Of a stretch of DNA of 64,000 nt, positions 26,101-46,696 are shown in pieces. A program made the position numbers and the translations under genes. Under the pieces are notes generated by a model. It saw only the letters and a program-made list of their open reading frames with translations, was not told the DNA's origin and made no database searches. The stretch comes from a virus, in IMG/VR virus record IMGVR_UViG_3300035701_000008, positions 1-64,000 of that record; one strand, written 5' to 3'. Numbering within the stretch: the first letter of the stretch is position 1; every line of letters starts with the position of its first letter.

Positions 26101-27936
26101 ACTGGTCAAGTTAGAAGAGTTATACCTAAGTATTTTACTAAGACAGATAAAACTGCAAATCAATTATCTACCGATCTTAATAAGATTGGAGCTCTATGGG
26201 TTAAGTCTTTATTAGAATATGAAAGTTCTAAAAACTTAGAGAACACACTTCTTACATTACACTCTGTTGAGAAAGCTAAAGGAAGTCTTATATTTGAAAA
26301 TGGACAAGTTCAGTTTACAGATGGAGATCTTAGTATCAATGAACAAGATAATAAGAATGCAGATATATTACAAACTATTATTGATGATGGATTGTATAAA
26401 CTAGGACAAGATCTTGGATCTATAGGAAACATTGGTGTAACAGCTCTTGGAGAAAAGCTTGGTAAAGATGACGAAGATAAACAAGCTAAAGCTATTAATG
26501 CTAAGAAACTATTAAGTAATGCTGATACATTAACTAGATCTATTGCTGTAGGTCTTAAACCTCTTATCTCCATTGCTAACTTTATGGGATATAACTTTCA
26601 AGCATATGTTAATGGAGGAACTGTATATTCTTTTTCAGAGTTTCAAAAAAACAATCTTAAAGTTGTTACAGGAAATAACTTCTCTACAATACAAAGAGGA
26701 CTTCTAAATCTTTTTGTTCCATTGAATGAAGATGTGGCTACAGAAGAAAGAAGAAAAATGGCTAAAGAACAAGGACTTATTAAATATCTATCCACTTGGT
26801 CATTTACTGATGTGATGATGTCAACTAACTCTTTCCCTGAAAGAAAGTTACAATTTTCTAATGCATTGAGTATAATTGATAACTCAATGGTGGTAGATGG
26901 AAAGATTGTTAACATCAGACAATATTTAAAAGAACAAGATAGAAATGCTAGAAAAGGAATGTCTGAAAGCGAAAGAAAAGCTTTAGAGAAATCATTTGAT
27001 CAAAGAGTTAAAGAGCTAAAAGAATCTTCTTCATTAGATAAGATAGCTAAGATTGAAAATGATGAAATGGTAATTCCAGGAGTGAGTGATACAGAACTTG
27101 CAAAGTTTCGTACATCTATCATTGAATATGGTAGAAAACTTAATGGTCAGATGAATGAAGATAACAAAGCTGGATATAGAAGAGATGCTATATTCACATC
27201 CTTCATGATGTTCAAAAACTGGATACCTAAATTAGTTTCTGAACATACATTAGGTATTAATAAAAACATTGAACTTAATCAATGGGAGTATGGTAGAACT
27301 AGAGCATTTTTTAAAACTTGGCAAAGTGTAGGTTTTAAAAACATATCTAAAATGAGAGCCATCATAAATGGTACTGATGAAGGATTACAACTTATCAATG
27401 AAATGCTTGAAGCTAAGAGATTAGATTATTTTAGAAAGACTGGTCAAGAGTTAGAGATTACAGAAGAAGAATATCAAGATCTTATAAGAGAGCAAATAGC
27501 TAATCAGATGAAAGAATTGTATTTATTACTTGGTGTTATATCTTTAATACTTATGACAAAAGCTTCTGTACCACCAGATGATGCTACAGATGAAGAAAGA
27601 AATAGATATAAGTGGTATGCTAAACTTGTTAATAAAGTGGCTGACGAGATTACATTTTATTATAATCCTCTATCATTTGAAAGTATGACTAAAGGATCTG
27701 TACTTCCATCATTGAATTTATTAACTAAAGCATCAGATGTATTATATTACACTGTTAGAGAAGTGTATGGAGAAGCTACAGATGATCAAACTATGGTTGA
27801 TAAATCTCATCCAACCAAATACTTCTTTAATATGATTCCTGTAGCTTCACAAATTCAAAGTGAAATTCTACCATATCTATATCCTGAATTAGCCAAAGAA
27901 CAAGGGGTGAGAGTTACAGAACAATCAAGAAGATAA
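23182..27936 (+). CDS. Large virion protein with PD-(D/E)xK nuclease-like domain (1584 aa)
   Basis: IPSVT...GTEIH...IDFIA...ILDWKT...QMGEY is a Cas4/RecB-like nuclease motif set. It also has a degenerate zincin motif (LTEEIVH) and follows the RNAP as in crAss-like genomes. Confidence 0.7.
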   Translation: MISCINTSSEEWKSLVASRGEDMAHYLWDLHEGEVPQSEYTETEMVASKASAETVVVMKNAAKQMDIDIMSLDEYAKGNPDIQTKGINGLADLIKGVVAIAQGMENYTLTEEIVHIATAILEQTNPKLVTAMIAKIDRFKIYDETLKAYKGKKAYQLANGKPDIRKIKKEAVDKLISELIINQSEGSTQFPELMQENERSMIQNWWNTILDLIRGIYSKTNIDIFEQNANRVLSANVGGVVSDITNGGVFYQVKNSAVDKIYDTVKDFDSRIELNPETIDSTGKVIPRHYTLDGLPEQIPSVTATLKKGTTMPDRTPLQKFLDDQKKDWGTEIHDFIYGFITNNLIDKDGYKRNDPLTNPVSTKLDPKVQKRLTDFSTELINSYEPGTRFLLEAKAVNQKVKGKLASAIDFIAIEPYKKEDGTDDVRVDILDWKTTSINKSRDEDINWAKQKDWKAQMGEYTKILYNYGLNPAQLRKARMIPFVMNYNYVVEGQPESGFSAPTSMEIGKLNSLEETNLYLLPVPINSESTGNPKVDSLLKSLREQWEKLYKKPVYAEDRYGKILEINKLSAAIRNLHVRLNFEPLVNVGKSFLKNARTALDDFSKIDYETISKEELDKRLGDLIDYGISAAKFTTMDQVFLSEYKREGMTDSNKEVLKELEHISSMTARMLNEISQLQNQYAVHLGLKEGVTTDSTKETILNAEKQIDGMSKTFLEGSKLSAKIIKLASNLLMNAKSLVNIELARKLKQYEKILIPLEKEASVRGVKAFDLIGTMSETGLNLIKKIDPEFWKEVVDAKQKKDKAFFLKNMDIKQYDKLSKAAIDKGIEELNKTTFASDEEEDDFQRSYKITKLKDSLDIHSERFDGYDNYRFSQLFKETMIEEGHLSKQYEQMSKSKAALDVWNFFTELNVKAKQMGYLDKQGSSFFPLIEATILQKFAQTNDISAQAKESLWTDFYQTRINEKQGMSSIDPETGQVRRVIPKYFTKTDKTANQLSTDLNKIGALWVKSLLEYESSKNLENTLLTLHSVEKAKGSLIFENGQVQFTDGDLSINEQDNKNADILQTIIDDGLYKLGQDLGSIGNIGVTALGEKLGKDDEDKQAKAINAKKLLSNADTLTRSIAVGLKPLISIANFMGYNFQAYVNGGTVYSFSEFQKNNLKVVTGNNFSTIQRGLLNLFVPLNEDVATEERRKMAKEQGLIKYLSTWSFTDVMMSTNSFPERKLQFSNALSIIDNSMVVDGKIVNIRQYLKEQDRNARKGMSESERKALEKSFDQRVKELKESSSLDKIAKIENDEMVIPGVSDTELAKFRTSIIEYGRKLNGQMNEDNKAGYRRDAIFTSFMMFKNWIPKLVSEHTLGINKNIELNQWEYGRTRAFFKTWQSVGFKNISKMRAIINGTDEGLQLINEMLEAKRLDYFRKTGQELEITEEEYQDLIREQIANQMKELYLLLGVISLILMTKASVPPDDATDEERNRYKWYAKLVNKVADEITFYYNPLSFESMTKGSVLPSLNLLTKASDVLYYTVREVYGEATDDQTMVDKSHPTKYFFNMIPVASQIQSEILPYLYPELAKEQGVRVTEQSRR

Positions 27937-28414: not shown

Positions 28415-30118
28415 ATGAATACAATTTGTTCAGCCAACCCATGTCCAATAATATTAAGTTCTTCCTGCGTATTCTACGAAGGACCTAACTTAGTATGTAC
28501 TGGTATTATTACTAATGAGACTCTCAGTTCTGTAATACAAAAACTTAGCACTGCTATATGTGCAATTAGTGTAGGTAGTGGAATATTACAAGTTACTGCC
28601 ACATCCCCTATCACATCAAGTGGTGGAAAATCTCCAAACATATCTACATCAATGTCTACTAATAAGTTAATTGGTAGAGCAACAACTGGTGTTGGAATAA
28701 TGGAAGAAATCTCTCTTGGTACAGGATTATCATTTACTGGATCAACATTAAATGTTTACCCAATTCCTTTTGAGTATAACATTAATGGATCAGGTATTCA
28801 ACCAGCATTAGGTGGTAATATTGCAAGTGGTGGTTATAGTGGAATAGGTGGTGGTTATCAAAACACTGCTTCTTGTGATAATTCAAATATTGGAGGAGGT
28901 AGATACAACACTGCTTCTTGTTATTTTGCTACTATTAGTGGTGGAGATGATAACATTTCTTCTGGTGATTGTTCTACAATAGGAGGTGGTAGTTTTAATA
29001 TTGCTTCAAATAGATCATCAACTGTAAGTGGAGGATATTGTAATGTTACAAATGGTGTTGGTTCTTCAATTGCAGGAGGTCTTTATAATAGTTCTGCTTC
29101 ATGTAGTTCAAGTATTGGAGGAGGATATAAAAATACAATTGGTTGTGGTTTTGCAAATGTTATAGGTGGAGGATATAGTAATTGTTCATCTGATGCTGCT
29201 TCAACAGTTGGTGGTGGTTATGGTAATAATTCTTCAGGTTATATGTCAACTATAGCTGGTGGTAAATGTAATATAGCAGGAGCTTCGTTATCATCAATTG
29301 GTGGTGGAGTTTGTAATCTTACAATTGGTGATTGTTCGATAATAGGAGGAGGTTTTTGTAATTTTACTAATAATATTGGTTCTACAGTTGGTGGTGGTTC
29401 TTACAATTGTTCTACTGGTAAAACATCAACAATTGGTGGAGGAGAATTCAATAATGCCAATGCTTCTCGTACAACTATCGGTGGGGGTAATAACAATACT
29501 GCTTGTGGTCTTGATTCATCAGTATTAGGTGGAAGGTTTAATACTGCAAGTGGTTCTTCATCAACAGTAGGTGGTGGTAAATATAATAATGCTTCAGCTT
29601 CTGCATCAACTATAGCTGGAGGATGTTGTAATATTGCAAATAGTGGTTGTTCGACAATAGGAGGAGGTATCTCAAACAGTGCTTTGAATATTTATGCATC
29701 AGTATTTGGTGGACATAACAACAGTGCATCTGGAAACTATTCTTTTGTAGGAGGTGGTTATAGTAATATTTCTTCTAATAGTTCTTCTGTAGTAAGTGGT
29801 GGTCGTTTTAATCAAGCAAGTGGTTGTTATAGTTCAATAGGTGGTGGTGGTGGTAACCTTGCTTCTCTTCGTGGTTCAACAGTTGCAGGGGGATATTATA
29901 ATTATGCTACTGGTTTAATGTCAGGTATTTTAGGGGGTAAATATAATAATATTAATGGTTATGACTATTCAATGATTGTAGGATCTAATTTGACTGCTGA
30001 TAGAGCTTGCACAACTTTTGTAAACAATCTCTCAATTAAAAACATTCCAACTAGTTCAGTAGGTCTTCCTCCTGGTTCTATTTGGAGAAGTGGTAGTGCA
30101 GTGTGCATTGTACCATAA
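28415..30118 (+). CDS. Fibre protein with ~14-aa S(T/S)IGGGxxN beta-roll repeats (567 aa)
   Basis: More than 20 tandem IGGG..N.A repeats (YadA/Hep-Hag-like beta-roll), an SPITSSGG..PNIS shaft motif, and Cys-rich composition. Confidence 0.7.
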   Translation: MNTICSANPCPIILSSSCVFYEGPNLVCTGIITNETLSSVIQKLSTAICAISVGSGILQVTATSPITSSGGKSPNISTSMSTNKLIGRATTGVGIMEEISLGTGLSFTGSTLNVYPIPFEYNINGSGIQPALGGNIASGGYSGIGGGYQNTASCDNSNIGGGRYNTASCYFATISGGDDNISSGDCSTIGGGSFNIASNRSSTVSGGYCNVTNGVGSSIAGGLYNSSASCSSSIGGGYKNTIGCGFANVIGGGYSNCSSDAASTVGGGYGNNSSGYMSTIAGGKCNIAGASLSSIGGGVCNLTIGDCSIIGGGFCNFTNNIGSTVGGGSYNCSTGKTSTIGGGEFNNANASRTTIGGGNNNTACGLDSSVLGGRFNTASGSSSTVGGGKYNNASASASTIAGGCCNIANSGCSTIGGGISNSALNIYASVFGGHNNSASGNYSFVGGGYSNISSNSSSVVSGGRFNQASGCYSSIGGGGGNLASLRGSTVAGGYYNYATGLMSGILGGKYNNINGYDYSMIVGSNLTADRACTTFVNNLSIKNIPTSSVGLPPGSIWRSGSAVCIVP

Positions 30119-30157: not shown

Positions 30158-30484
30158 ATGGAAAATTTCACAATTCATATCTTTGGATATGGAGAAACCC
30201 AAATCAATTCAAAAGAGTTATCAGTAAAGGTGAAGACAGATTCTTTAACCACTGTAACTCCTTTAGTAGAGGTAATCTTTGCTAAGAAACCTGTAGATAA
30301 CCCAGCTGTTATCTCTCCTTTTCATGCAATCAATATCTTTGGATATAAAGATGTGAGATGGATAAACAAAAATGGATTTAGTGTAAAAGATGAAGAAGCT
30401 TTGAAACCTCTTATTGATGCTTTGATTGCTGAATTACAAATTGCTAAAGACACAACCACTACCACAACCACTGTGCTAGTATAG
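30158..30484 (+). CDS. Hypothetical protein with C-terminal poly-Thr tail
   Basis: 108-aa ORF ending KDTTTTTTTVLV. Confidence 0.65.
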   Translation: MENFTIHIFGYGETQINSKELSVKVKTDSLTTVTPLVEVIFAKKPVDNPAVISPFHAINIFGYKDVRWINKNGFSVKDEEALKPLIDALIAELQIAKDTTTTTTTVLV

Positions 30485-30503
30485 TCTTTTTGAATTTATC
30501 AAG

Positions 30504-30542
30504 AAAAGGATAAGATGTATTATTAATCTTATCCTTTTTTTT
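30504..30542 (+). terminator. Rho-independent terminator-like hairpin
   Basis: 13-bp stem AAAAGGATAAGAT/ATCTTATCCTTTT followed by a T-run. Confidence 0.65.
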
Positions 30543-30545
30543 ATT

Positions 30546-30553
30546 TATCTTTG
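30546..30553 (+). promoter_or_regulatory. Bacteroidota -7 element (TATCTTTG) driving the sulfation cassette
   Basis: TAnnTTTG immediately after the terminator and 19 nt before ATG 30573. Confidence 0.6.
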
Positions 30554-30572
30554 TCCGTAAAATCAATTAATT

Positions 30573-31394
30573 ATGAAGAAAAGAATCTTTTTTAACTCCT
30601 CTCTTCCAAGGGCAGGATCCACTCTTTTGCAAAACATAATTGCAGATAACCCAGATTTCTATTGCACACCTACATCAGGATTTCTAGATCTTTTGTTAGG
30701 AGCTAAAGGAAACTATAACAACTCTTCAGAGTTTAAAGCACAAGATGCTGAATTAATGAAACAGGGATTCATTGGCTTTTGTCACAATGGTATGCATGGT
30801 TATTTCAATGCTATTACAGACAAACCTTATGTATTAGATAAGAATAGAGGTTGGGGAATTCATTTACCGTTTGCTAGTGAGTTTATGTTAGCTCCTAAGG
30901 TGGTATGTATGATTAGAGATGTACGTGCTGTTTATGCTTCTATGGAAAAGAACTTTAGAAAAAATCCTACAGAAGCAAACCACATTCAAAATCCTAATCA
31001 ATTAGTAGGCACCACTCTTCAAAAAAGAATTAACCTATGGGCTGATGGACCACCAGTTGGTATATCTATGGATAGATTAAAAGATGCATTTGATCAAGGA
31101 TTGGATAAAAGAATATTATTTATCCGATATGAAGACTTAATGGATTTTCCTGAACAAGAACTTAGAAGATTCTATGAGTATATGGAAGTTCCATATTACG
31201 AAGGTCATTCATTTGAAACTGTTACACAGCATACACATGAGAATGATGCTATACATGGTATATATGGAGATCATAAACTAAGACCTAAGTTTGAAAGAAA
31301 GCCTGATGACTTTGAAGAAGTATTAGGATATGAAATTTGTCAATCAATTAAAAACACATATCCATGGTTCTTTAAGAAATTTGGATACGTATAA
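30573..31394 (+). CDS. PAPS-dependent sulfotransferase
   Basis: 5'-PSB loop SSLPRAGSTLL, followed by DKNRGW, MIRDVRAVYAS (3'-PB) and IRYEDL motifs. Confidence 0.85.
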   Translation: MKKRIFFNSSLPRAGSTLLQNIIADNPDFYCTPTSGFLDLLLGAKGNYNNSSEFKAQDAELMKQGFIGFCHNGMHGYFNAITDKPYVLDKNRGWGIHLPFASEFMLAPKVVCMIRDVRAVYASMEKNFRKNPTEANHIQNPNQLVGTTLQKRINLWADGPPVGISMDRLKDAFDQGLDKRILFIRYEDLMDFPEQELRRFYEYMEVPYYEGHSFETVTQHTHENDAIHGIYGDHKLRPKFERKPDDFEEVLGYEICQSIKNTYPWFFKKFGYV

Positions 31395-31404
31395 ATCAAC
31401 AAAC

Positions 31405-32274
31405 ATGAATATAATATTTGATATATCAGGAGGCTTAGGTAAGAACATTCTTTCTACAGCTGTATTAAAAGCTATTAGAACTCAACATCCTAAAGCAAAC
31501 ATAATTGTTCTTACATCTTATACAGATGTATTTATTGGTAATCCTAATGTAAACAAAGTGATACAACATGGAACTACATCAGGGATATATAAAGATTACA
31601 TAATGGATAAAGACACAAAGGTGTTTATTACAGATCCTTATACAACATCTGATTATCTAACTGAATCAAAACATTTGATTGAGATATGGTGTAATCTTTT
31701 TGGTATTGCTTACAATGGTGAAATGCCTGAGTTATTTATATCTAAAACAGAAGTGGAATACTTTGCCCCATTCTATCAATTAGATAAACCTATCATGGCT
31801 ATACAACCTAATGGTGGTCCACAAGATCAACCATTGAAATATAGTTGGGTGAGAGATATTCCTTCACCTGTAATTAATGATGTTATTCAACATTACAAGA
31901 AAGATTATACAATTGTACACATCAAACGTGAGGATCAAATTATGTATGCTGATACAATGGCTGCTCTTGATTCATTCAGAAGTATAGCTGTTCTATTATC
32001 TCTAGCACAAAGAAGACTTCTTATTGATTCATCTGCTATGCATATTGCTACAGCTCTACAATTACCAAGTCTTGTATGTTGGATAGGAACAAGCTCAAAG
32101 GTGTTTGGTTATGATTTACATGCTAACCTACAAGCTAATGATCCAGACAAAGAACTAAACTTTGATCACCCATACTTACAGAAGCTTCCATTATTTGAAG
32201 ACATTTCTAAATGTCCATACACAGAACTAGGAAGTATATTTAATAGTGAAGACATAATTAAAGCGTTGAAATAA
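31405..32274 (+). CDS. Glycosyltransferase, GT-B fold (GT9/heptosyltransferase-like)
   Basis: GGLGKNIL N-terminal loop and LLIDSSAMHIATAL...CWIG motif. The likely start is ATG 31405 rather than 31330. Confidence 0.75.
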   Translation: MNIIFDISGGLGKNILSTAVLKAIRTQHPKANIIVLTSYTDVFIGNPNVNKVIQHGTTSGIYKDYIMDKDTKVFITDPYTTSDYLTESKHLIEIWCNLFGIAYNGEMPELFISKTEVEYFAPFYQLDKPIMAIQPNGGPQDQPLKYSWVRDIPSPVINDVIQHYKKDYTIVHIKREDQIMYADTMAALDSFRSIAVLLSLAQRRLLIDSSAMHIATALQLPSLVCWIGTSSKVFGYDLHANLQANDPDKELNFDHPYLQKLPLFEDISKCPYTELGSIFNSEDIIKALK

Positions 32275-32714
32275 TGGCAGTATATTGGTTTACAGGACAG
32301 CCTTCACATGGTAAGACAGTGTTGGCTAAATTATTGAAAGAAGAATTAGAAAAATCTGATAAAGTTTTTCATATAGATGGAGATGACTTACGTGCACTTA
32401 CATTAAACTTAGACTTCTCTGAACAGGGAAGAATAGATAATGTTAAAGGTGCACAGAAGATAGCACACTATTTATATAATCAAAACTACACAGTGGTAGT
32501 TTCTGTTATTGCTCCATACAGATGGCAGAGAGAAGAACTAAAAAGAATGCTTGGTGCTGATCTTGTAGAAATATATGTTCATACAACAGAACCAAGAGAA
32601 AGAGATCATTTTAGTGTATTTAATTATGAACCTCCATTAGAGAAATTCATTGATATAGACACTACAGAAGATACACCACAAGAATCAATTGATAAAATTT
32701 TAAATCTAATATAA
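32274..32714 (+). CDS. cysC: Adenylyl-sulfate (APS) kinase
   Basis: WFTGQPSHGKT P-loop, HIDGDDLR, DFSEQGRIDNV, IAPY and YEPP motifs. Confidence 0.85.
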   Translation: MAVYWFTGQPSHGKTVLAKLLKEELEKSDKVFHIDGDDLRALTLNLDFSEQGRIDNVKGAQKIAHYLYNQNYTVVVSVIAPYRWQREELKRMLGADLVEIYVHTTEPRERDHFSVFNYEPPLEKFIDIDTTEDTPQESIDKILNLI

Positions 32715-33115
32715 TGAAATGGAATAAGAAAGTGCATGTACAGTCTTCCATGCAACCAAAAGGATCACAATATGCTATGTTTGTAGGAAGATGGCAACCT
32801 TTACATAAAGGACATCAAGAACTATTTGAACAAGCTTTAGATGATGGTAAGAATGTTTTGATTTGTATCAGAGATGTAAAACCTGATGCAAAGAATCCTT
32901 TCACAGCTAATCAGGTAAAGGATAACATTGAGAATCATTATGCTTTATTTGTAGACAACAATATAGTGAAGGTGATTATCATTCCAGACATATGCTCAAT
33001 TGAGTTTGGTAGAGGTGTTGGTTATGATATTATAGAACATATTCCTCCTACAGAGATAGCAGATATATCTGCTACAAAGATTAGAGAGCAAATGCGTAAA
33101 GATGGAAAGTTATGA
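32714..33115 (+). CDS. HxGH-family nucleotidyltransferase (cytidyltransferase-like; candidate sulfate adenylyltransferase)
   Basis: FVGRWQPLHKGH and ISATKIRE motifs. It is coupled to cysC. Confidence 0.75.
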   Translation: MKWNKKVHVQSSMQPKGSQYAMFVGRWQPLHKGHQELFEQALDDGKNVLICIRDVKPDAKNPFTANQVKDNIENHYALFVDNNIVKVIIIPDICSIEFGRGVGYDIIEHIPPTEIADISATKIREQMRKDGKL

Positions 33116-33345
33116 GTTTAGTACAAATTAGATATAATACATTGTGTGATGATAATCATACATTCTGGAGAATCTTAATTGATAATGTTGAGCATACATG
33201 TGCTAATGTAGTGATCAATGTTCCAACACATACAACAAGAGATGATGTATGGGATAATGGAAGACAAGCTATGGTGAACAAACATCATTTAACATGTAAC
33301 CCAAACACAGTCACTTGGAAAGGTGATGTAGTAATACTTGAATAA
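33112..33345 (+). CDS. Hypothetical protein
   Basis: 77-aa ORF overlapping both neighbours. Confidence 0.6.
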   Translation: MSLVQIRYNTLCDDNHTFWRILIDNVEHTCANVVINVPTHTTRDDVWDNGRQAMVNKHHLTCNPNTVTWKGDVVILE

Positions 33346-33553
33346 TATGGTAGTAGATAAAAAAAGACACATAGCAAAAACAATAAGCTATAGACTCTTA
33401 AGTACATTAATTGGCTTTACAATCATGTTACTTATAACAGGTTCTGTTAAGGTGGGTGCAGCATTTGGTGTGGCTGAACTAATATATAAACCTGTACAAT
33501 ACTACATACACGAAAGAGTGTGGTATAGATGGGTTAAGTATGGATTAAAATAG
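33338..33553 (+). CDS. DUF2061-like small membrane protein
   Basis: RHIAKTISYR...YYIHERVW signature and two hydrophobic helices. Confidence 0.75.
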   Translation: MNNMVVDKKRHIAKTISYRLLSTLIGFTIMLLITGSVKVGAAFGVAELIYKPVQYYIHERVWYRWVKYGLK

Positions 33554-33619
33554 TTTTAGGTTATGCTATATTATGAAGATTATCTCATGTAGTCATTTCA
33601 TTATATGGAAATTAAGATT

Positions 33620-33627
33620 TATATTTG
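33620..33627 (+). promoter_or_regulatory. Bacteroidota -7 element (TATATTTG) upstream of the lysis cassette
   Basis: TAnnTTTG in the intergenic gap. Confidence 0.45.
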
Positions 33628-33720
33628 TTGTGTATAAATTGGTATAATGATTGCATCATTTACAATTATCTCTTTAAATTGTATATATGTTATAACAACA
33701 CCCAAACATTATTCTCCCTT

Positions 33721-34041
33721 ATGGAAAACGCATTTGAACAACAAGTAGAAAAAGAATTAAAAAACATGGATCAAAGACTACATGATCTAGAGGAGAAGAT
33801 GACTTCTATAGATGGAAAGCTAACGCAAGTTGTAGATGCTATATTAGGTAATGCACTAACAAAAACAGGGGGATTTGTTGCTGACTTAACTGAGCTGAAG
33901 GCTAAGATAAAAGATTTAGAAGATAAGATACAGAAGCAAGAAGAGTTCAAGAAGAGATTCACTTGGACCATAGGTATCATCATTGCAGTGGGAGCAATCA
34001 TACAATATATATCTGTTGTATATAAAAATGTAAAAGGATAA
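33721..34041 (+). CDS. Coiled-coil protein with C-terminal TM helix (holin/antiholin-like)
   Basis: Likely start ATG 33721. Heptad-rich body with a TM helix FTWTIGIIIAVGAIIQYISVV. First gene of the lysis cluster. Confidence 0.55.
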   Translation: MENAFEQQVEKELKNMDQRLHDLEEKMTSIDGKLTQVVDAILGNALTKTGGFVADLTELKAKIKDLEDKIQKQEEFKKRFTWTIGIIIAVGAIIQYISVVYKNVKG

Positions 34042-34048
34042 AATAAAA

Positions 34049-34222
34049 ATGAAAAGCTGGAAAACAACATTAATGGGTTTAATATTAGCTGCTATGATAG
34101 CTGTACAACCATTAACTTCGGATGAGGTAAATCTAGAAAAAGATTGGCCTAAATTTGTTTTAGCTATTGCTATTGCAATATTTGGATATTTCTCTAAAGA
34201 TCATGATGTAACAGGAAAGTAA
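34049..34222 (+). CDS. Putative holin (57 aa, two TM helices; not in ORF track)
   Basis: Translates as MKSWKTTLMGLILAAMIAVQPLTSDEVNLEKDWPKFVLAIAIAIFGYFSKDHDVTGK and abuts the next ATG. Confidence 0.65.
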   Translation: MKSWKTTLMGLILAAMIAVQPLTSDEVNLEKDWPKFVLAIAIAIFGYFSKDHDVTGK

Positions 34223-34537
34223 ATGATAAAATATTTAAAAGATCAGTACTTAGCGGTGATCATCACCGTTATTTTTATATTCTTTACACTAAACAATCAA
34301 AATAAGAATGATATTCTTATAGAGAAAACTAAAAAGTTAGAGAGTGATATATTAGTCCTTGAAGAGAAAGCTAAAGAGTCTACTACAATTATAGATAGCT
34401 TATCAAAGATAGATACAGTTATAGTTAATAGAATCAAAACCATAAAACAAAAAGAATATGTACAAATTAGGATTATTGATAGTTTGCCTACTAATAAGCT
34501 CCAAAGCTACTTCACAGATAGATACAAAGAAGAATGA
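34223..34537 (+). CDS. Putative inner-membrane spanin
   Basis: N-terminal TM helix plus coiled coil, overlapped at its 3' end by the next gene, in a lysis context. Confidence 0.55.
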   Translation: MIKYLKDQYLAVIITVIFIFFTLNNQNKNDILIEKTKKLESDILVLEEKAKESTTIIDSLSKIDTVIVNRIKTIKQKEYVQIRIIDSLPTNKLQSYFTDRYKEE

Positions 34538-34934
34538 TTCTATTATCAAACTAAATGATAAAGTTGCTAGAAAAGTGATCACTGATCTTGTACGTTATGA
34601 TTTTGCTAAAGAGATTATCAAAGAACAAGAAGCAAGAATCAAAAACTTTGAGAAGAAGGAAATTGAATTTAAAAATCAAATAGATATAAAAGACTCTATT
34701 ATATTTTATCAAAAGAGCATCATTGATATCCATAAAGATATTATTAAAACTAAGAAGCCTTTAGAGATACATGGATATGTTGGTGTTCAATCAACACAGC
34801 TTACATTAAAAGAACCTACATTATATACAAACCTAATGATTGAGTTTACTAAGTTTAATGTAGGAGCTCAATATTTTATACAACCAAATAACCTACCAGG
34901 TTATAGTGTTATTCTAGAATATAATATATTTTAA
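34458..34934 (+). CDS. Putative outer-membrane spanin partner with signal peptide, coiled coil and C-terminal beta-strands
   Basis: Signal peptide MYKLGLLIVCLLISSKATS, an 80-nt overlap with the i-spanin candidate, and a C-terminus YSVILEYNIF. Confidence 0.5.
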   Translation: MYKLGLLIVCLLISSKATSQIDTKKNDSIIKLNDKVARKVITDLVRYDFAKEIIKEQEARIKNFEKKEIEFKNQIDIKDSIIFYQKSIIDIHKDIIKTKKPLEIHGYVGVQSTQLTLKEPTLYTNLMIEFTKFNVGAQYFIQPNNLPGYSVILEYNIF

Positions 34935-34945
34935 ACCAAACAATA

Positions 34946-35374
34946 ATGGTAACAAGTGCACAGTGCTTAAAGAAGTGGGGTGATCCTGCTATTACAACAA
35001 ACGAATTAAAATACATGACAGTTTGGGATGTACCAGCTCACTTAGAGATAGGTGTTATTCCAAAAAAACTATATTGTAACAAACAGATTGTTGCACCATT
35101 AATCAAAGCATTCACTAACCTAATAGATAGAAAATTAGTCAATGAACTAAAGACTTGGGATGGATGCTTCAATGTAAGAAAAAAAAGAGGATTGACAAGT
35201 ATGTCTTTACATTCTTGGGGAATAGCAATTGATGTTAATGCAGCATGGAATGGTTTACATAAAACTCCACAACTATCTGCAGGGTTTGTAAAATGTTTTA
35301 CAGATGCAGGATTTGATTGGGGAGGAACCTGGACTAGAAAAGATGGTATGCATTTCCAATTAAAAACTATATAA
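34946..35374 (+). CDS. Endolysin, peptidase M15 family
   Basis: SLHSWGIAIDVN (SxHxxGxAxD), DWGGTW and DGMHFQ motifs. Confidence 0.88.
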   Translation: MVTSAQCLKKWGDPAITTNELKYMTVWDVPAHLEIGVIPKKLYCNKQIVAPLIKAFTNLIDRKLVNELKTWDGCFNVRKKRGLTSMSLHSWGIAIDVNAAWNGLHKTPQLSAGFVKCFTDAGFDWGGTWTRKDGMHFQLKTI

Positions 35375-35376
35375 TA

Positions 35377-35511
35377 ATGGCAAAACCAACCAACGCAGTA
35401 GAGAAAAGAGTTAAGATTAAAGTGAGCAGACCAGGTGTGCACGCTAAATCTAAAACATCTAAACTTAAATCTTCTAAGAAATACAAGAAGATTTATAATG
35501 GACAAGGATAA
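35377..35511 (+). CDS. Small basic protein (44 aa; not in ORF track)
   Basis: MAKPTNAVEKRVKIKVSRPGVHAKSKTSKLKSSKKYKKIYNGQG, with TAATG coupling to the next gene. Confidence 0.6.
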   Translation: MAKPTNAVEKRVKIKVSRPGVHAKSKTSKLKSSKKYKKIYNGQG

Positions 35512-35813
35512 TGGAAGTAATATATCAAGGAAATGTAGCTTTAGATGGAAGCACCAGAATAATATGTAACATTGGTACATTAGTAATTAATACAATTATT
35601 ATTAATAATCCTATTTCTAATTATGTATTTACACTTAATAGATACATGACTTCTTCTGGTATTTCACAAGTTTTATTATATACTTTTGAATTGAATGCAG
35701 AAGAAACTTTAAGAGATACACAAACTTATACATTAAACTTAAATAACTTCATAGAGCTATTATCTGATGTTCCTGGAACTACATTTTATATAAGTGCTAC
35801 AGAAATACAATGA
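35511..35813 (+). CDS. Hypothetical beta-rich structural protein
   Basis: 100-aa ORF coupled to both neighbours. Confidence 0.55.
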   Translation: MEVIYQGNVALDGSTRIICNIGTLVINTIIINNPISNYVFTLNRYMTSSGISQVLLYTFELNAEETLRDTQTYTLNLNNFIELLSDVPGTTFYISATEIQ

Positions 35814-36742
35814 TACAAGTATTAGATAAAGATGGGAATACTTCCACCGATGATGGTGGAGTTCTTATATATGATAAGTTTGGACATATAAAAAGAGTTA
35901 CTAGTGGAGGAAGTCCTACAGGACCTGCTGGTGGTGATCTTTCCGGAACCTATCCTAATCCAAATGTTGTATGGGCTAATGGACAACCAACATATGATCT
36001 TGTTTATTATCCTATACCTACAGGAACTATCAGTGATTATATAAGAGGAGATGGTTCCATAGCTGCATTTCCCACTATACCTTCAGGAACAGTTACATCA
36101 GTTGCTGCTCTTACATTAGGAACTACAGGAACAGATTTATCATCATCTGTAGCAACAGGAACAACAACTCCTGTAATAACATTAAATGTTCCAACAGCAT
36201 CAGCCACAAATAGAGGAGCATTAAGTGCTGCAGATTGGACTACGTTTAATAACAAACAAAATGCTTTAGGATATACACCTGTTAGGTTTATTATTAAAGA
36301 CCAAACTCAATATTCTACAGTAACAGGAACAGGAGAAACTTTACAAGGAACTTATTTTATAGCAGCAAATACTTTTTCTTCTAATGATGCAATAAAAATT
36401 ATTCCATTTTTAGCTGAAAAAACAGGAATATTAGGAACATGCACAATGAGAGTAAGAGTGGGATCTTCATCAGCATTTCTTAGTTCAAGTGTAATAGCAA
36501 CATATACTACAGGTATAACTGAACTATGGTGTATTATGCAACGATTAGGATTTACTTTAAGAGGTGGAAATATTAGAGGTATGCTATTTTCTTTATCAAG
36601 ACAATCAGATGTAATAGCCACTGCTGGTGCTATAAGTGTAGGTACTTTTAATCCTGCTGTTAATAATTGGTTTTTCACGTCATTACAGTTATCTGTTGGA
36701 ACAGACTCAATATTTCAATCTAATTTTGTAATGACAAACTAA
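35810..36742 (+). CDS. Putative fibre/decoration protein
   Basis: Fibre-shaft motifs GPAGGDLSGTYPNP, GTVTSVA and FNNKQNALGYTP. Thr/Ser-rich. Confidence 0.6.
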   Translation: MIQVLDKDGNTSTDDGGVLIYDKFGHIKRVTSGGSPTGPAGGDLSGTYPNPNVVWANGQPTYDLVYYPIPTGTISDYIRGDGSIAAFPTIPSGTVTSVAALTLGTTGTDLSSSVATGTTTPVITLNVPTASATNRGALSAADWTTFNNKQNALGYTPVRFIIKDQTQYSTVTGTGETLQGTYFIAANTFSSNDAIKIIPFLAEKTGILGTCTMRVRVGSSSAFLSSSVIATYTTGITELWCIMQRLGFTLRGGNIRGMLFSLSRQSDVIATAGAISVGTFNPAVNNWFFTSLQLSVGTDSIFQSNFVMTN

Positions 36743-36909
36743 TGAAAACAGTAATAGACAAAGAGACAGGAAAAGTTTTATATTGTTTTTTTAACAATAT
36801 GGAAATTGCTGAAAATGAAATAATTATTGAAGCTATACCATTTGGTAATTATTATAATTTTCAAACAAAAGAATTTTATACAGTAATTGAAGAAGTTATT
36901 GAAGAATAA
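36742..36909 (+). CDS. Small acidic protein, possible fibre chaperone (55 aa; not in ORF track)
   Basis: MKTVIDKETGKVLYCFF...YYNFQTKEFYTVIEEVIEE, with TAATG coupling to the fibre gene. Confidence 0.55.
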   Translation: MKTVIDKETGKVLYCFFNNMEIAENEIIIEAIPFGNYYNFQTKEFYTVIEEVIEE

Positions 36910-36993
36910 CTTTTTTACTTATAAAACTTAATATACTAAATAACCAAGTAACAAATAATTATTATATTTTTGTTATTTTAAACATTAAATACA

Positions 36994-38001
36994 ATGGCTA
37001 TACCAAGTAAACAAATAGGATGGGGAACAGAATCAAACCTATTATGGCAAATTGCCAAACAATTACAATATTTAACACAAGTGGCAGGAAATGCTCCTAA
37101 AGGTCCATTCAAATATAATGCTAACGGAACAGGTATAGAACCTTGTTTATTTAGTAATACTTCTAGTGGTACTTATTCAACAATAGGTGGTGGATGTAGA
37201 AATACTGCTTCAGGGCAATGTTCTACAGTGGGAGGTGGTCAAAGTAATATAGCTTGTGGTGATTTGGCTACAATTGGTGGTGGTTATATTAACACTGCTT
37301 ATGGTAATTGTTCAACGATAGGTGGAGGTTTTAGCAATCTTACTGAAGGATGTTCATCTACCGTTGGTGGTGGTAATAATAATACTGCTTCTGGTTTTTA
37401 TACAACAGTTGGTGGAGGTTATAATAATTCAGTAATAATTGGTCGTTCAACAATTAGCGGAGGTTATAACAATACTGCCTCTAGTGATACAACAACAATA
37501 GGTGGTGGATTAGCTAATTCTACATCAGGTTCATACTCAACTGTTGGAGGTGGTAGATATAATATTTCAGGTGGTAGTGGTGCTACAATTAGTGGAGGTA
37601 GTGGGAATACTGCTTCAGGCAACTATTCAGTAATTAGTGGTGGTTGCTCAAACATTGCTTCCTATGGTCATTCAACAATAGGCGGAGGATATGGTAACGA
37701 AGCTAATGGTTATTGCTCGACTATTGGTGGAGGTAAAACAAATAATGCTTCAGGTGCACATTCAGTAATTAGTGGTGGTAGTGATAATGTTGCTGATGGA
37801 AATAGCTCTGCTATTTTAGGGGGTCGCAGTAATGACACTTATGGTTTTTCTTATGCAATGATTGTAGGTAATAGTATACAAGCAAATAGAGCTGATACAA
37901 CATTTGTAAATAACCTTTCAATTATGAATATCCCAACAACTCCTGTAGGTTTGCCAAGCGGTGCTGTATGGAATAGTGGAGGAATATTAACTATAGTTTA
38001 A
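36994..38001 (+). CDS. Second IGGGxxN beta-roll fibre protein (335 aa)
   Basis: Same repeats and near-identical C-terminus (FVNNLSI.NIPT..VGLP.G..W) as 28415, with a different N-terminal module. Confidence 0.7.
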   Translation: MAIPSKQIGWGTESNLLWQIAKQLQYLTQVAGNAPKGPFKYNANGTGIEPCLFSNTSSGTYSTIGGGCRNTASGQCSTVGGGQSNIACGDLATIGGGYINTAYGNCSTIGGGFSNLTEGCSSTVGGGNNNTASGFYTTVGGGYNNSVIIGRSTISGGYNNTASSDTTTIGGGLANSTSGSYSTVGGGRYNISGGSGATISGGSGNTASGNYSVISGGCSNIASYGHSTIGGGYGNEANGYCSTIGGGKTNNASGAHSVISGGSDNVADGNSSAILGGRSNDTYGFSYAMIVGNSIQANRADTTFVNNLSIMNIPTTPVGLPSGAVWNSGGILTIV

Positions 38002-38016
38002 TAAAAATATAAAGAA

Positions 38017-38154
38017 ATGGCAATACCATCAAAACAAATAGGTTGGAGTACACAAAGTAATCTCTTATGGTACATATCAAAAGAATTGGAAAGATTAACA
38101 TGTGTAATGGCTGGTGGCTGTACAACTACTACCACTACTACAACAGTAGCTTAA
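38017..38154 (+). CDS. 45-aa paralog of the 36994 N-terminal module with a Thr8 tail (not in ORF track)
   Basis: MAIPSKQIGWSTQSNLLWYISKELERLTCVMAGGCTTTTTTTTVA. Confidence 0.7.
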   Translation: MAIPSKQIGWSTQSNLLWYISKELERLTCVMAGGCTTTTTTTTVA

Positions 38155-38184
38155 AATAAAAACAAAAATAAAACCAACTACATT

Positions 38185-38790
38185 ATGAAAGATTTAAAAT
38201 TTATCCAGGAAAAATGGTTACCTTGTCCAGGATTTGAAACTTCTTATGAAGTTAGTAATTATGGAAAAGTTAGAAGTATTGATAGATATTGTTCTGGAAG
38301 AAGAGGTCTTATAAAAGGACAAATTATTCATTCTGATTTAAATCAAAAAGGATATCCACAATTAAGACTTTATAATAGTAATAAAAAGTATGTTAGAAAT
38401 CAACATAGATTAGTTGCTTTAGCTTTTATACCTAATCCTAATAACTTACCACAAGTAAATCATATAGATGGTAATAAACTAAACAATCATATATCAAATC
38501 TAGAATGGATTTCAAATTCTGATAACATGAGACATGCATATAAGTTAGGATTAAAATGTAGTAAAGGAGAAAATAATAGTAATTGTAAAATAACAGATAA
38601 TCAAGTAACCCAAATTAAACTTATATACAATAATGGAAAATCTTCTAAAGATATTTCTGAAGAACTAGGTATAAAATTACATATAGTTAGACAAATTATA
38701 AGTGGGAAATCTTGGAAGTCTAATAGAACACCTCTTATGAAAAGAGACGATAGATCAAAAACCAAAAAACCAATATTATGCGTGAATTAA
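38185..38790 (+). mobile_element. Free-standing NUMOD4-HNH homing endonuclease
   Basis: EKW..C.GFE..YEVSNYGKVRS (NUMOD4) and HRLVA.AFIPNP...VNHIDGNKLNN...NLEW (HNH). Confidence 0.88.
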
Positions 38791-39794
38791 AGTTTATACA
38801 AAGTTGCCCAAGCGATATTTATTACACATGGCAAGTAAACCTTTGGATGGAAAGCCTAAAAGAAATAGGACATAGCGATAAAGCTATTAATGTTATCTTT
38901 ATAGCTAAAGGGAGAGAGAATACAGATAAGTGGAAACAAATAGAAAATTTGTATCCAGAAGCAGAGTTTCATTACTATGCAGATGAAGATGATTTAAGTC
39001 GATTGTTAGGAATCTATATTCCTGTTCTACGTCCTTATGTTCTTTGGAAACATTTTAAGAAACATCCAGAGCTAAGTGAAAAAGCTATCTTCTATTGTGA
39101 TAGTGATATTCTATTTATGAAGGATTTTAATGTAGATAAGTTCTTAGAGGATGACATTAGTTACCTATCTGATACAAATAGCTACATCAATGCTAAATAT
39201 TTTGATAGTAAGATTAATCAAGTGCTTCCTGAGAAGCTAGAAGAATATAAGAATAGAGACATTCTTGCAGAAATTGCAAGTGTTGTAGGAATAAGCAGAG
39301 AAATCTGTGAAGCTAATAATGATCATTCAGGAGGAGCACAATATCTATTAAAGAATGTAGATGCAAACTTCTGGAGTAAGGTGATGAATGATTGTATTCT
39401 TATAAGAAGTTATTTACAAACAGTGAATAGAGAATTCTTTAAAGATGAAAATACAGGCTATCAAAGCTGGTGTGCAGATATGTGGGCTGTTCTTTGGAAC
39501 ATCTGGATGAGAGATCAAGAAACAAGAGTGGTCAAAGAATTAGCATTTGCTTGGGCTACAGATCCACTTATCAAATTAGAATCTCATACAATCTTTCATA
39601 ATGCAGGAATAGTTTCTGAAACAGGAAATGGCTATCCAGCTTTCTATAAAGGAAAATATCATATGGGAAGTGATCCAACAAAAGATCCTAACTTAGATGT
39701 TATTCTTAATGATGAGAAAACACAAAAGTATTGTACGTGGTTTTATGCCACTAAATTGAATGAAATTAAAAACAAATATAACCTAGACTATTAA
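38778..39794 (+). CDS. GT-A glycosyltransferase resembling plant HPAT/peptidyl-serine galactosyltransferases (GT95/GT96-like)
   Basis: YYTWQV, YIPVLRPY, IFYCDSDILF (DxD), GGAQY, WCADMWA and IFHNAG motifs. Confidence 0.65.
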   Translation: MRELKFIQSCPSDIYYTWQVNLWMESLKEIGHSDKAINVIFIAKGRENTDKWKQIENLYPEAEFHYYADEDDLSRLLGIYIPVLRPYVLWKHFKKHPELSEKAIFYCDSDILFMKDFNVDKFLEDDISYLSDTNSYINAKYFDSKINQVLPEKLEEYKNRDILAEIASVVGISREICEANNDHSGGAQYLLKNVDANFWSKVMNDCILIRSYLQTVNREFFKDENTGYQSWCADMWAVLWNIWMRDQETRVVKELAFAWATDPLIKLESHTIFHNAGIVSETGNGYPAFYKGKYHMGSDPTKDPNLDVILNDEKTQKYCTWFYATKLNEIKNKYNLDY

Positions 39795-39812
39795 CCCTAA
39801 ATTAAAAAATAA

Positions 39813-40025
39813 ATGGGAAGCATTAATTCAAGACCTTTAAAGGCTTTTGTTCGCTACGATGGTAGCCACAGAATAGTTGCAGGAAGCTTAATCCTTAGAA
39901 AAAATAAGCCAAAAGTAGGTAAGTGGAAAGAAATAAATGCATATGAGTGCTGTTTCCTTAGTACCACTACCACTACAACTACAGTAGCACCAACAACTAG
40001 TACAACAACAACAGGACCATTATAA
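39813..40025 (+). CDS. Small Cys-containing module with poly-Thr tail
   Basis: LKAFVRYDGS...KPKVGKWKEI..YECC followed by a T-rich tail. Confidence 0.7.
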   Translation: MGSINSRPLKAFVRYDGSHRIVAGSLILRKNKPKVGKWKEINAYECCFLSTTTTTTTVAPTTSTTTTGPL

Positions 40026-40027
40026 TC

Positions 40028-40795
40028 ATGAGAAGCAATAATAATAATAAGCTTAAAGCTTTTGTACGTTTTGATGGTTCAGGACGTGTAGTGTCAAGTA
40101 GTTTAATTGTACAAGCATTTAAACCGAAGGTTGGTAATTGGAAAGAAATAGATGCTAAGGAGTGTTGTAATTATACATCCACCACCACATCTACTACCAC
40201 CATACAATCCACTAATTGGACTTTTGTTCCTGATCAACAATTAGTTTGGCCTATTGATCAAAATGGATATACATTATATGAAGGTGAATGGACAGCATTT
40301 GATGATGGACAAACAGTAGATTCATTTCCTTTTGTAGATGATTTTTACGCAACAGGTGTAGCTAGTACTACATTCATTATTGATACTAATGGAAGGGCTA
40401 TGGTTAATGTTAGTAATTGGGATTTATTTGGTAATGGGGGAGATTTATATATAGAACCTGGTACACCTCTTAATGATGGTGATACACAAAACTTTTGGTA
40501 TTTATCAAGTGGACCATCAACTAAATGGAAAAATAGTATATTAGTATATTGTGGACATTGCTGTGGAATTGGATTTGCAGAAAAACCATATTCTTATATA
40601 ATTAATGTATATAGAGATGATACATATCAATATTTAGAAACAAGAATTAAAACAGATAGTTCAATTTCTGGAGTACCTAATGGTGTGGTTGGTATTACTG
40701 GTGCAACAGGTGTTGCAACTGTACAATCACAAGTATGGAGAAGTGGATTATTAGGAGTAGATTGGGCATTATTAGGAAATGGTATAATAATATAA
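40028..40795 (+). CDS. Paralog of 39813 with Thr linker and C-terminal beta-rich (NIDO-like) domain
   Basis: Same N-terminal module, a TSTTTSTTT linker, and a DD.....FPF..DFY.......IDTNG pattern. Confidence 0.6.
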   Translation: MRSNNNNKLKAFVRFDGSGRVVSSSLIVQAFKPKVGNWKEIDAKECCNYTSTTTSTTTIQSTNWTFVPDQQLVWPIDQNGYTLYEGEWTAFDDGQTVDSFPFVDDFYATGVASTTFIIDTNGRAMVNVSNWDLFGNGGDLYIEPGTPLNDGDTQNFWYLSSGPSTKWKNSILVYCGHCCGIGFAEKPYSYIINVYRDDTYQYLETRIKTDSSISGVPNGVVGITGATGVATVQSQVWRSGLLGVDWALLGNGIII

Positions 40796-46053: not shown

Positions 46054-46080
46054 AAAAGCCTCTATTAAGAGGCTTTTTTT
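46054..46080. terminator. Bidirectional intrinsic terminator at the strand switch
   Basis: Perfect hairpin AAAAGCCTCT-atta-AGAGGCTTTT with A- and T-runs on either side, between convergent blocks. Confidence 0.85.
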
Positions 46081-46696
46081 ATAATTGTTTTTTTAATTTA
46101 CTTCCCCAAGAGGATACATTTGAAGCATGTTCTAAATAATATCTCCATTCTTCTGGAATTTCATTTAAATACCAAGGAACATGCTTAATACAATAAGGTT
46201 TATCTAACCTAATTGCATTATAAGTGAATGGTGAGTTAGGTGGATATAATGCAAATGTAGTGTCTATATCAGCAATCCAACCATGTTCATTTTTATTAAC
46301 CCAGAACTTACTTTCCCAGTTTATTATATTCTGTCTAAGAGGTGTTTCAGGTAGATCTAAATCTAAAGAGAATCCTACCTTTATATTATCTTTTGCAATG
46401 TTTAACATTACATCTAGCCAATCATCTGGAACTCCTTCATAAGAACAATCTGAATCAGCTATTATAAAATAATCTGTTAAGTGTTGTTTTAAGTCATCTC
46501 CCCATACACTATGAGGACCTCCATTAACTTTAGAATATACAATCTCTACAGGACAAGTTTTGTAGTATTCTAACAATGGTGGGTATGTAGATTGTTGATC
46601 ATATATAATCACATCTATTCTACTCTCCTTAGATAGAAATTCTACTGTTTCTTTGAGTGTAGATAGGAGATTTCTATTTACTATTATTGCTTTCAT
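46079..46696 (-). CDS. Glycosyltransferase, GT2-like
   Basis: IIVNRN, IIYDQQSTYPPLL and FIIADSD (DxD) motifs. Confidence 0.7.
   Translation of the reverse strand: MKAIIVNRNLLSTLKETVEFLSKESRIDVIIYDQQSTYPPLLEYYKTCPVEIVYSKVNGGPHSVWGDDLKQHLTDYFIIADSDCSYEGVPDDWLDVMLNIAKDNIKVGFSLDLDLPETPLRQNIINWESKFWVNKNEHGWIADIDTTFALYPPNSPFTYNAIRLDKPYCIKHVPWYLNEIPEEWRYYLEHASNVSSWGSKLKKQL

Follow-up and report, generated by a model that had tools for sequence, protein, structure and literature searches.

A glycosyltransferase (GT) encoded by a crAss-like phage probably transfers sugar to poly-threonine tags on the phage's own structural proteins. We found its gene in the window, by which we mean the whole stretch of 64,000 nucleotides analysed, bases 1-64000 of the IMG/VR virus record IMGVR_UViG_3300035701_000008, a complete viral genome of 113,586 bp with direct terminal repeats and a GC content of ~32%. 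This reading rests on the fold of the GT and on genomic association: the fold, catalytic-type motifs, modular acceptors, gene adjacency and a correlation of presence and absence were all observed, and comparative genomics supports protein O-glycosylation of the Thr tags well. The GT and the proteins discussed with it are given below; an earlier note, made from the letters alone, had described the open reading frames (ORFs), tracts and motifs at these positions, and all of them were found there.

38778-39794, plus strand: 338-residue retaining GT-A glycosyltransferase, a proposed protein O-glycosyltransferase (evidence: phrog_4417 and fold)
38017-38154, plus strand: 45-residue protein, anchor module A (~35 residues) followed by Thr8, ending CTTTTTTTTVA; stalk-only paralog of the protein at 36994
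36994-38001, plus strand: 335-residue fibre-like protein, anchor module A and GGGxN beta-repeats, without a Thr tract; long paralog of the protein at 38017
39813-40025, plus strand: 70-residue protein, anchor module B (~49 residues, ending ..YECC) followed by T7-VAP-TTSTTTT; proposed acceptor
40028-40795, plus strand: 255-residue protein, anchor module B, TSTTTSTTT linker (residues 50-58) and a passenger domain of ~195 residues
30158-30484, plus strand: 108-residue protein with C-terminal Thr7-VLV (..DTTTTTTTVLV)

The GT was assigned to phrog_4417 (E 9e-54), which has no annotated function, and a Pfam scan of the protein gave no match. When clustered at 90% identity, its family comprises at least 2,681 clusters, and at 50% identity at least 773. 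The motifs YYTWQV, YIPVLRPY, YCDSDIL and WCADMWA follow one another in this order, and an alignment of 69 diverse family members showed that Y80, D108, D110, Y136, Q229, F257, H274 and K291 are invariant and G277 nearly so, with D108-S-D110 forming the DxD motif. The AlphaFold2 (AF2) model (predicted local distance difference test score, pLDDT, 97.1; predicted template modelling score, pTM, 0.93) was compared with known structures by Foldseek and by VIA, which is independent of Foldseek, and both agreed on a retaining GT-A enzyme of the GT8 type. The VIA search matched LgtC (Z 14.2, 240 residues aligned), Skp1 alpha-GalT (14.0), glycogenin (13.9), the catalytic domain of UGGT (13.8), WbbM (13.4), GlyE (13.0) and the GT8 protein 3tzt (12.7), and more weakly LARGE1 (11.9), the PBCV-1 capsid GT A64R (11.0) and mimivirus R699 (10.3); Foldseek matched glycogenin at E 4e-7. 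In the viral structure library BFVD, the top matches were uncharacterised phage proteins or members of the same family, followed by viral GT8-like enzymes, and a sequence search of the PDB with the GT protein and with its profile gave no meaningful match. In the model, the globular fold sets in at residue 4 with the first beta-strand (residues 4-11), and no membrane anchor or N-terminal hydrophobic helix was seen, so that the GT should be soluble and cytoplasmic. In longer family members (homologs P0137, P0168, P0212, P0231 and P0258 and one member of alignment A3) the GT domain is fused to GT2, GT6, GT29 sialyltransferase, GT32-like (Gly_transf_sug) or methyltransferase (Methyltransf_24) domains, a pattern typical of glycan-assembly enzymes, which suggests that methylated or sialylated glycans are built on the same primer in some phages.

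The earlier note had looked for a protein-directed enzyme as against a glycan-extending or DNA-modifying one, and the fold bore this out in part: protein-directed retaining GTs (glycogenin, Skp1 alpha-GalT, UGGT, GlyE) are among the best matches and no DNA-modifying GT is, but the glycan-extending LgtC and WbbM also stand at the top. Phage GTs are classically DNA-modifying, and a preprint reports diverse viral GTs that hypermodify DNA (bioRxiv 10.1101/2023.12.21.572611). It is nevertheless scarcely credible that the present enzyme glycosylates hydroxymethylated bases of the phage DNA as an evasion of restriction, for its gene stands in the late structural block and a search of the complete genome found no thymidylate-synthase-like hydroxymethylase and no TET/JBP homolog; DNA glycosylation was rejected on the absence of these genes.

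The extent of the late structural block follows from its landmark genes. The crAss muzzle protein model PF25731 is matched (E 4e-34) by a 1734-residue protein encoded at genome 106140-111344, and PHROGs place the large terminase, the portal and a 520-residue major head protein (92394-93956) at genome 86-94 kb; the block therefore runs from ~86 kb over the genome end to ~45 kb of the window. Ten proteins among the 153 ORFs of the genome carry Thr tracts, four near the GT (30158, 38017, 39813 and 40028) and six at 96-111 kb, and all ten lie in this block. With Thr making up 6.6% of 36,592 residues in the 153 ORFs, runs of seven Thr would be expected ~0.0002 times genome-wide, so the excess is far beyond chance. 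The tract codons in this genome are a mix of ACA, ACC and ACT, and across relatives the counts were ACA 817, ACT 802, ACC 359 and ACG 36. These mixed codons, together with a tract length held at seven, ruled out replication slippage as the origin and argue, as the earlier note had proposed, for selection of the tracts at the protein level.

The tracts form part of a modular design. The 45-residue protein at 38017 is 69% identical over 32 residues to the N-terminus of the long protein at 36994, which itself is 42% identical over 328 residues to a 567-residue protein at 28415-30118; likewise, the protein at 40028 is 64% identical over 47 residues to the N-terminus of the one at 39813, whose C-terminus reads STTTTTTTVAPTTSTTTTGPL. 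A third pair with a shared N-terminal module was found at genome 101088/101859. Among close relatives, defined as loci with a GT 61-90% identical to the present one, homologs of 38017 occur in 67 of 80 (mostly 42-62 residues long, some with passenger domains and up to 688 residues) and homologs of 39813 in 77 of 80. The protein at 40028 gave no match in Pfam or PHROG scans. The homolog of 30158 in 3 relatives likewise has its T7 at residue 99, and its distance to the GT is unchanged.

Over 80 related viral loci, the consensus of anchor A (~35 residues) is M-x-IP-x-[KR]-Q-IGW...NLLWQI-x-KQL and that of anchor B (~49 residues) is ..RPLKA[FY]VR[FY]DGSGR..PKVGKW..AYECC, and each is followed by T7-[VAI]AP repeats with a 10-residue period. 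The tract length is exactly seven in 173 of 266 tracts of related loci, and 99 of the 105 short spacers have 3 residues, chiefly VAP or AAP. Most anchor copies end right after the repeats (42-94 residues), and a minority run on into passenger domains (up to 688 residues). Other tracts of this genome join N-terminal modules to adhesin-like domains, for example Fib_succ_major (PF09603, E 1e-40).

Further Thr-rich proteins were seen beside these. The protein at genome 101859-102533 (locus L004:7859-8533) has 224 residues, with a Thr/Ser tract of ~58 residues that is mostly (TS)n in mixed ACN/AGY/TCN codons, and it shares a 70-residue N-terminal module with a neighbouring 248-residue protein (60% identity). 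Some close relatives (loci L047 and L065) encode proteins of ~690-720 residues in which T7-X3 is repeated 18-20 times in succession, forming true mucin-like domains. A 390-residue late protein at genome 96223-97395 (locus L004:2223-3395) ends ..ITTTTTTSTAAPSTTTTTSTNIP; its conservation is very strong, for it is 85-100% identical to its homologs in all 120 matches listed, out of 3,627 clusters matched. No PHROG or Pfam match was found for it, its AF2 model was unusable (pLDDT 49), and tblastn gave only weak matches to unannotated Flavobacterium phage genes. This poly-Thr protein was considered as the major head protein and set aside, since PHROGs put the major head protein at the position given above.

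The pairing of GT and poly-Thr ORFs is strong across genomes. Among close relatives, 78 of 79 loci had a same-strand poly-Thr ORF <1 kb from the GT, upstream in 66/76, downstream in 71/79 and on both sides in 59, and opposite-strand poly-Thr ORFs near the GT numbered 0 of 203. At 80 distant loci, with a GT ~30-40% identical to that of this phage, a poly-Thr ORF ended <100 bp from the GT in 52, and the density of poly-Thr ORFs was 3.8 per 10 kb in the first kb compared with 0.2-0.5 per 10 kb at 3-10 kb. Cellular forms of the GT divide in the same respect: single-domain forms (<400 residues), found mostly in Firmicutes prophages and on contigs of aquatic metagenome-assembled genomes, had poly-Thr neighbours in 20 of 29 cases, whereas two-domain forms had them in 3 of 50 (Fisher p = 4e-9). 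The two-domain homologs, ~450-770 residues long, are frequent among Sphingobacteriia and Chitinophagia and were seen on chromosomes of Chitinophaga, Pedobacter, Sphingobacterium and Mucilaginibacter (loci L309-L366). For the reverse direction, 80 viral loci were picked by the DNA pattern (ACN)8 alone, and in 54 of them an open frame translates the tract into 7 or more Thr. In the short stretches compared, the GT was present in 4 of these 54 (7%), always adjoining the poly-Thr ORF, and tblastn found the GT family in 77 of 50,697 phage records. The GT is thus a strong predictor of Thr tags, and Thr tags are a weak predictor of this GT.

Cultured phages showed the same pairing. In Enterococcus phage phiFL1A, the gene right after that of the major tail protein gp50 encodes the GT homolog gp51; gp50 ends ..NGTTTTTSTTTTTTSSTTTTTTTQASSK, and the capsid-position protein gp45 ends ..TTTTTKPTTTTTKPTTTTTTTQG. 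In Lactococcus phage 1706 (locus L290), where orf14 encodes the GT, the capsid/protease (orf10) and the major structural protein (orf13) each have T9-10-HHD at the C-terminus. The pairing is also present in Staphylococcus phage vB-SscS-F1, Enterococcus phage vipetofem and Lactobacillus phage Iacchus. In the Lacticaseibacillus phage R3.3 (L166) and the Lacticaseibacillus prophages L347, L359, L363 and L374, the capsid-position and tail-tube proteins end ..T6-SHA. The end motif shared after the Thr run within one phage (HHD; SHA) may be a recognition or termination signal for the tag.

Relatives that lack the GT gave the complementary picture. Phages without it carry tail-tube homologs 50-60% identical to phiFL1A gp50. 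No GT was found by tblastn in Javan47, phiJL-1 and cIP1, nor by profile search in phiJL-1 and cIP1, and no poly-Thr tract was found in the whole genomes of all three. R3.3, a Coetzeevirus like phiJL-1 and cIP1, has the GT, and its tail-tube and capsid-position proteins both carry poly-Thr tails. The co-occurrence of GT and poly-Thr proteins that the earlier note had predicted therefore held in close, distant and cultured relatives alike, and relatives without the GT were without tracts.

The cultured phages also bear on which step the GT would catalyse. A genome search of five GT-positive phages (phiFL1A, R3.3, 1706, vipetofem and vB-SscS-F1) found no GT2 and no GT1/GT4 enzymes, so that, if a phage enzyme glycosylates those Thr tails, this GT must act on the peptide itself. 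The Thr tags might alternatively be glycosylated with the GT merely extending a sugar attached by the host, or with the GT modifying other residues, as glycogenin does Tyr. The fold neighbours GlyE, Skp1 alpha-GalT and UGGT all add sugar to an existing glycan and the present phage has two GT2 genes, both of which would suit such a role; but the five small phages without GT2 or GT1/GT4 would then need host priming in Bacteroidota and Firmicutes alike, and we know of no general cytoplasmic Thr O-glycosylation in these hosts. We hold this alternative to be improbable. In the present phage, with its two GT2 genes, extension of the glycan is plausible.

Several observations weigh against transfer to Thr tags. 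The present phage lacks a Thr tract on its major head protein. Two of the closest folds, LgtC and WbbM, belong to enzymes that extend glycans and do not act on proteins. By the criterion set for the distant loci, a tract was absent in 21 of 80, and in the GT-positive phage SAC12B no tract was found within 5 kb of the GT. Most viral poly-Thr proteins are independent of this GT, since only 4 of the 54 poly-Thr loci carry it in the stretch compared, and the fold family is not confined to a Thr-tag acceptor, since poly-Thr neighbours are missing around its two-domain homologs in Chitinophaga, Pedobacter and Sphingobacterium.

The folds of oligosaccharide and polysaccharide GTs among the matches, the two-domain cellular homologs and the poly-Thr loci without a nearby GT also fit a different account, in which the tracts are unmodified flexible or extended linkers, the GT targets host envelope polysaccharide, teichoic acid or lipopolysaccharide for superinfection exclusion or receptor masking, and the structural region simply tolerates accessory genes. 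That account leaves unexplained why related phages without the GT are wholly without tracts, why the two genes adjoin on the same strand within 100 bp across crAss-like phages, siphoviruses and myoviruses, and why the T7 length and the 10-residue period are so strict. The GT gene, moreover, is part of late structural operons in lytic phages and does not occupy positions of lysogenic conversion. Taken together, we give an envelope target little credence.

Under the reading we prefer, transfer of sugar to the Thr tags, the GT would be a soluble, cytoplasmic, metal-dependent retaining GT-A enzyme that uses a nucleoside diphosphate sugar as donor. It would place the sugar, presumably alpha-linked, directly on the hydroxyls of the poly-Thr tags before or during virion assembly, with Thr as the acceptor residue. 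The tag is a portable module: in this phage it consists of the T7-[VA]AP decapeptide repeat behind the short N-terminal anchors A and B, which we infer to dock onto the virion, and it either closes the protein as a stalk only or bridges to a passenger domain. In siphophages and myophages of Gram-positive hosts, the same kind of tag is a C-terminal tail on tail-tube and capsid-position proteins, next to a homologous GT. Further enzymes, namely GT2 and in this phage a cassette for sulfation, could elaborate the glycan, and mucin-like glycosylated bristles on the virion are plausible. Extending this, one could picture a widespread phage glyco-tag system in which a poly-Thr tag (T7-xAP repeats or C-terminal T6-T10 tails) and a cognate cytoplasmic GT8-like transferase give a mucin-like O-glycan coat to the capsids, tails and fibres of crAss-like podophages, siphophages and myophages of Bacteroidota and Firmicutes, with the stalk-only mini-proteins of the present phage forming bristles of glycan alone and its surface being sulfated and sulfomucin-like. 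At this full breadth the proposal is speculative and, on balance, unlikely to hold in every part.

Other genes around the locus include the cassette and the GT2 genes mentioned above, and an endonuclease.

38185-38790, plus strand: HNH/NUMOD4 homing endonuclease between the anchor-A gene and the GT (PF07463 1e-13, PF13392 2e-8, phrog_59 1e-51)
30573-31394, plus strand: sulfotransferase (PF13469 3e-15, PF00685 1e-9), in 8/80 relatives
31330-32274, plus strand: 314-residue protein with a weak GT9-like match (PF01075, E 0.018, 14.8 bits against a cut-off of 22), in 8/80 relatives
32274-32714, plus strand: adenosine 5'-phosphosulfate (APS) kinase for synthesis of 3'-phosphoadenosine 5'-phosphosulfate (PAPS) (PF01583 3e-20)
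32714-33115, plus strand: 133-residue HxGH nucleotidyltransferase (PF01467 4e-7; PF01747 ATP-sulfurylase E 0.004, below cut-off)
46674-47447, minus strand: GT2 glycosyltransferase, 257 residues, candidate glycan extender (PF00535, E 2.9e-13)
46079-46696, minus strand: second GT2-like protein, 205 residues (PF00535, E 5.9e-7), in 18/55 relatives

The HNH gene occurs in only 10 of 80 relatives, and in relatives without it the gap between the end of the anchor-A ORF and the GT is mostly ~20-50 bp; the endonuclease stands outside the GT/poly-Thr system. Its start, MKDLKFIQ, resembles that of the GT, MRELKFIQ, and the two genes overlap by 13 bp (GT start 38778-38801), so it looks as if the endonuclease was inserted at the GT start and duplicated the first GT codons.

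The earlier note had proposed that a GT9-like and two GT2 enzymes extend the glycan. The two GT2 genes are real, lying beyond the section which that note described, and the 257-residue enzyme, kept by 44 of the 55 close relatives whose flanks were long enough, is the only GT2 that is commonly conserved. The GT9-like assignment is weak: the match is below the cut-off, a PDB sequence search with the 314-residue protein gave no match, and the upstream block turned out to be a PAPS/sulfotransferase cassette. This cassette (30573-33115, in the late structural block) was found in 8-12 of 80 close relatives only and is accessory; the 133-residue nucleotidyltransferase is a possible minimal ATP sulfurylase. 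The cassette might sulfate the glycan; it would be unusual for a phage to encode the sulfation of a component of its virion.

The phage is a crAss-like podophage and its host is probably an aquatic member of the Bacteroidota; by tblastn, a Chryseobacterium phage is the nearest cultured relative as to the GT. Two giant ORFs, 4725 and 1584 residues long (window 9003-23180 and 23182-27936), stand downstream of the muzzle-like gene and may encode crAss-type ejected cargo or virion RNA polymerase proteins.

In the literature searched on poly-threonine, phage glycoproteins and crAss glycosylation, we saw neither this GT family nor its pairing with poly-Thr proteins described before. To our knowledge, phage virion glycosylation has been shown only for a few mycobacteriophages, in which it alters antibody recognition. 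As far as sequence can tell of function, the present system would be a form of virion O-glycosylation in phages that relies on a new family of enzymes and on poly-Thr as a dedicated tag. If this is true, protein glycosylation of phage particles would be common, given the size of the family (at least 2,681 clusters at 90% and 773 at 50% identity) and its range, which covers abundant aquatic crAss-like phages as well as phages of Enterococcus, Staphylococcus, Lactococcus and Lactobacillus. It would give a function to phrog_4417 and to hundreds of 'hypothetical' Thr-tailed structural proteins, would be relevant to dairy phage biology and to phage therapy, where it would bear on how the immune system recognises and clears Enterococcus and Staphylococcus phages, and would offer a simple genetically encoded pair of tag and enzyme for cytoplasmic O-glycosylation in bacteria.

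Among known systems, the GT8-type enzymes (glycogenin, LgtC, Skp1 alpha-GalT and GlyE of the pneumococcal serine-rich-repeat pathway, with UGGT of GT24) gave the best whole-chain fold matches, with Z of 13-14 over 210-250 aligned residues. This GT also has a DxD motif and, further on, a conserved His, Gly and Lys (H274, G277, K291), which may correspond to the metal site and the C-terminal H-x-x-G...K motif of GT8, and several of these fold neighbours act on proteins or glycoproteins. The differences are a sequence identity of only 8-13%, a chain ~80 residues longer with extra helices in this GT, and the fact that none of GlyE, UGGT and Skp1 alpha-GalT primes a peptide, all three lengthening a glycan already in place. 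PF01501 (Glyco_transf_8) matched neither the GT nor any of 69 relatives at E <= 1; the enzyme is GT8-like by fold, and its sequence does not place it in GT8.

According to the earlier note, the order of motifs fits the plant enzymes SERGT1 and HPAT, and a possible kinship with them remains a reasonable lead. Here the results were divided. The HPAT (GT95) model PF23452, with a gathering cut-off of 23.9 bits, did not match the GT at E <= 0.1, nor at E <= 10 when run against this genome alone, and it gave sub-threshold matches in 3 of 69 relatives (best E 0.012) and in 0 of 48 distant representatives. The HPAT and DUF7164 models found no match on this genome alone, and control genomes were equally silent, so that this silence leaves room for remote kinship. 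On the other side, 22 of the 30 nearest named ESM-Atlas clusters by language-model features fell in the PF23452 set, with scores of 0.96-0.97; one of them is a bacterial cluster in which PF23452 makes up 58%. HPAT is thus the nearest curated family by these features, which as regards homology is a lead only; no GT95/GT96 structure was among the fold matches, so the fold search could not rank those families. The proposed acceptors are runs of hydroxy amino acids, as for plant HPAT (GT95) and SERGT1/SGT1 (GT96), with Thr here and not Hyp or Ser, and the GT lacks a membrane anchor in its model, unlike the plant enzymes, which are Golgi membrane proteins with a type II anchor and a luminal enzyme part.

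Mucin tandem repeats and the glycosylated Thr/Pro linkers of secreted glycoside hydrolases are comparable Thr/Pro-rich repeats, and the T7-VAP tandem repeats resemble both. In contrast to the mucin type, this enzyme is not a GT27 ppGalNAc-transferase, its reaction would take place in the bacterial cytoplasm, and its repeat is sharply fixed at T7 with a 10-residue period. Giant viruses also encode cytoplasmic GT-A enzymes that decorate virion proteins (PBCV-1 A64R and mimivirus GTs); the likeness is at the level of fold only, and hosts and acceptor sites differ from those of this phage. In PBCV-1 the glycans are N-linked to Vp54.

The closest known system is the virion glycosylation of mycobacteriophages, in which phage-encoded GTs are said to modify virion structural proteins (Freeman et al. 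2023, Cell Host Microbe 31:1216). Enzyme family and acceptor module both differ from that system, because a profile search of the whole Che8 genome found no member of the GT family at E <= 0.01 and the C-termini of the Che8 capsid and tail-tube proteins (..FNKTGS and ..QYSDGS) have no poly-Thr tag; likewise, no Mycobacterium phage was among the 77 tblastn matches to the GT. The acceptor here is, unlike there, a dedicated repeat module on fibre-like or accessory proteins and not on the major head protein. As in mycobacteriophages, the GT gene is placed with structural genes, in the present phage within the late block between fibre-like genes and in phiFL1A and 1706 as the gene after the major tail or structural protein. 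A passage of PMC12619734 cites mycobacteriophage glycosylation at the C-termini of capsid and tail-tube subunits, and the poly-Thr tails of phiFL1A, R3.3 and 1706 occupy the same C-terminal position as those glycans.

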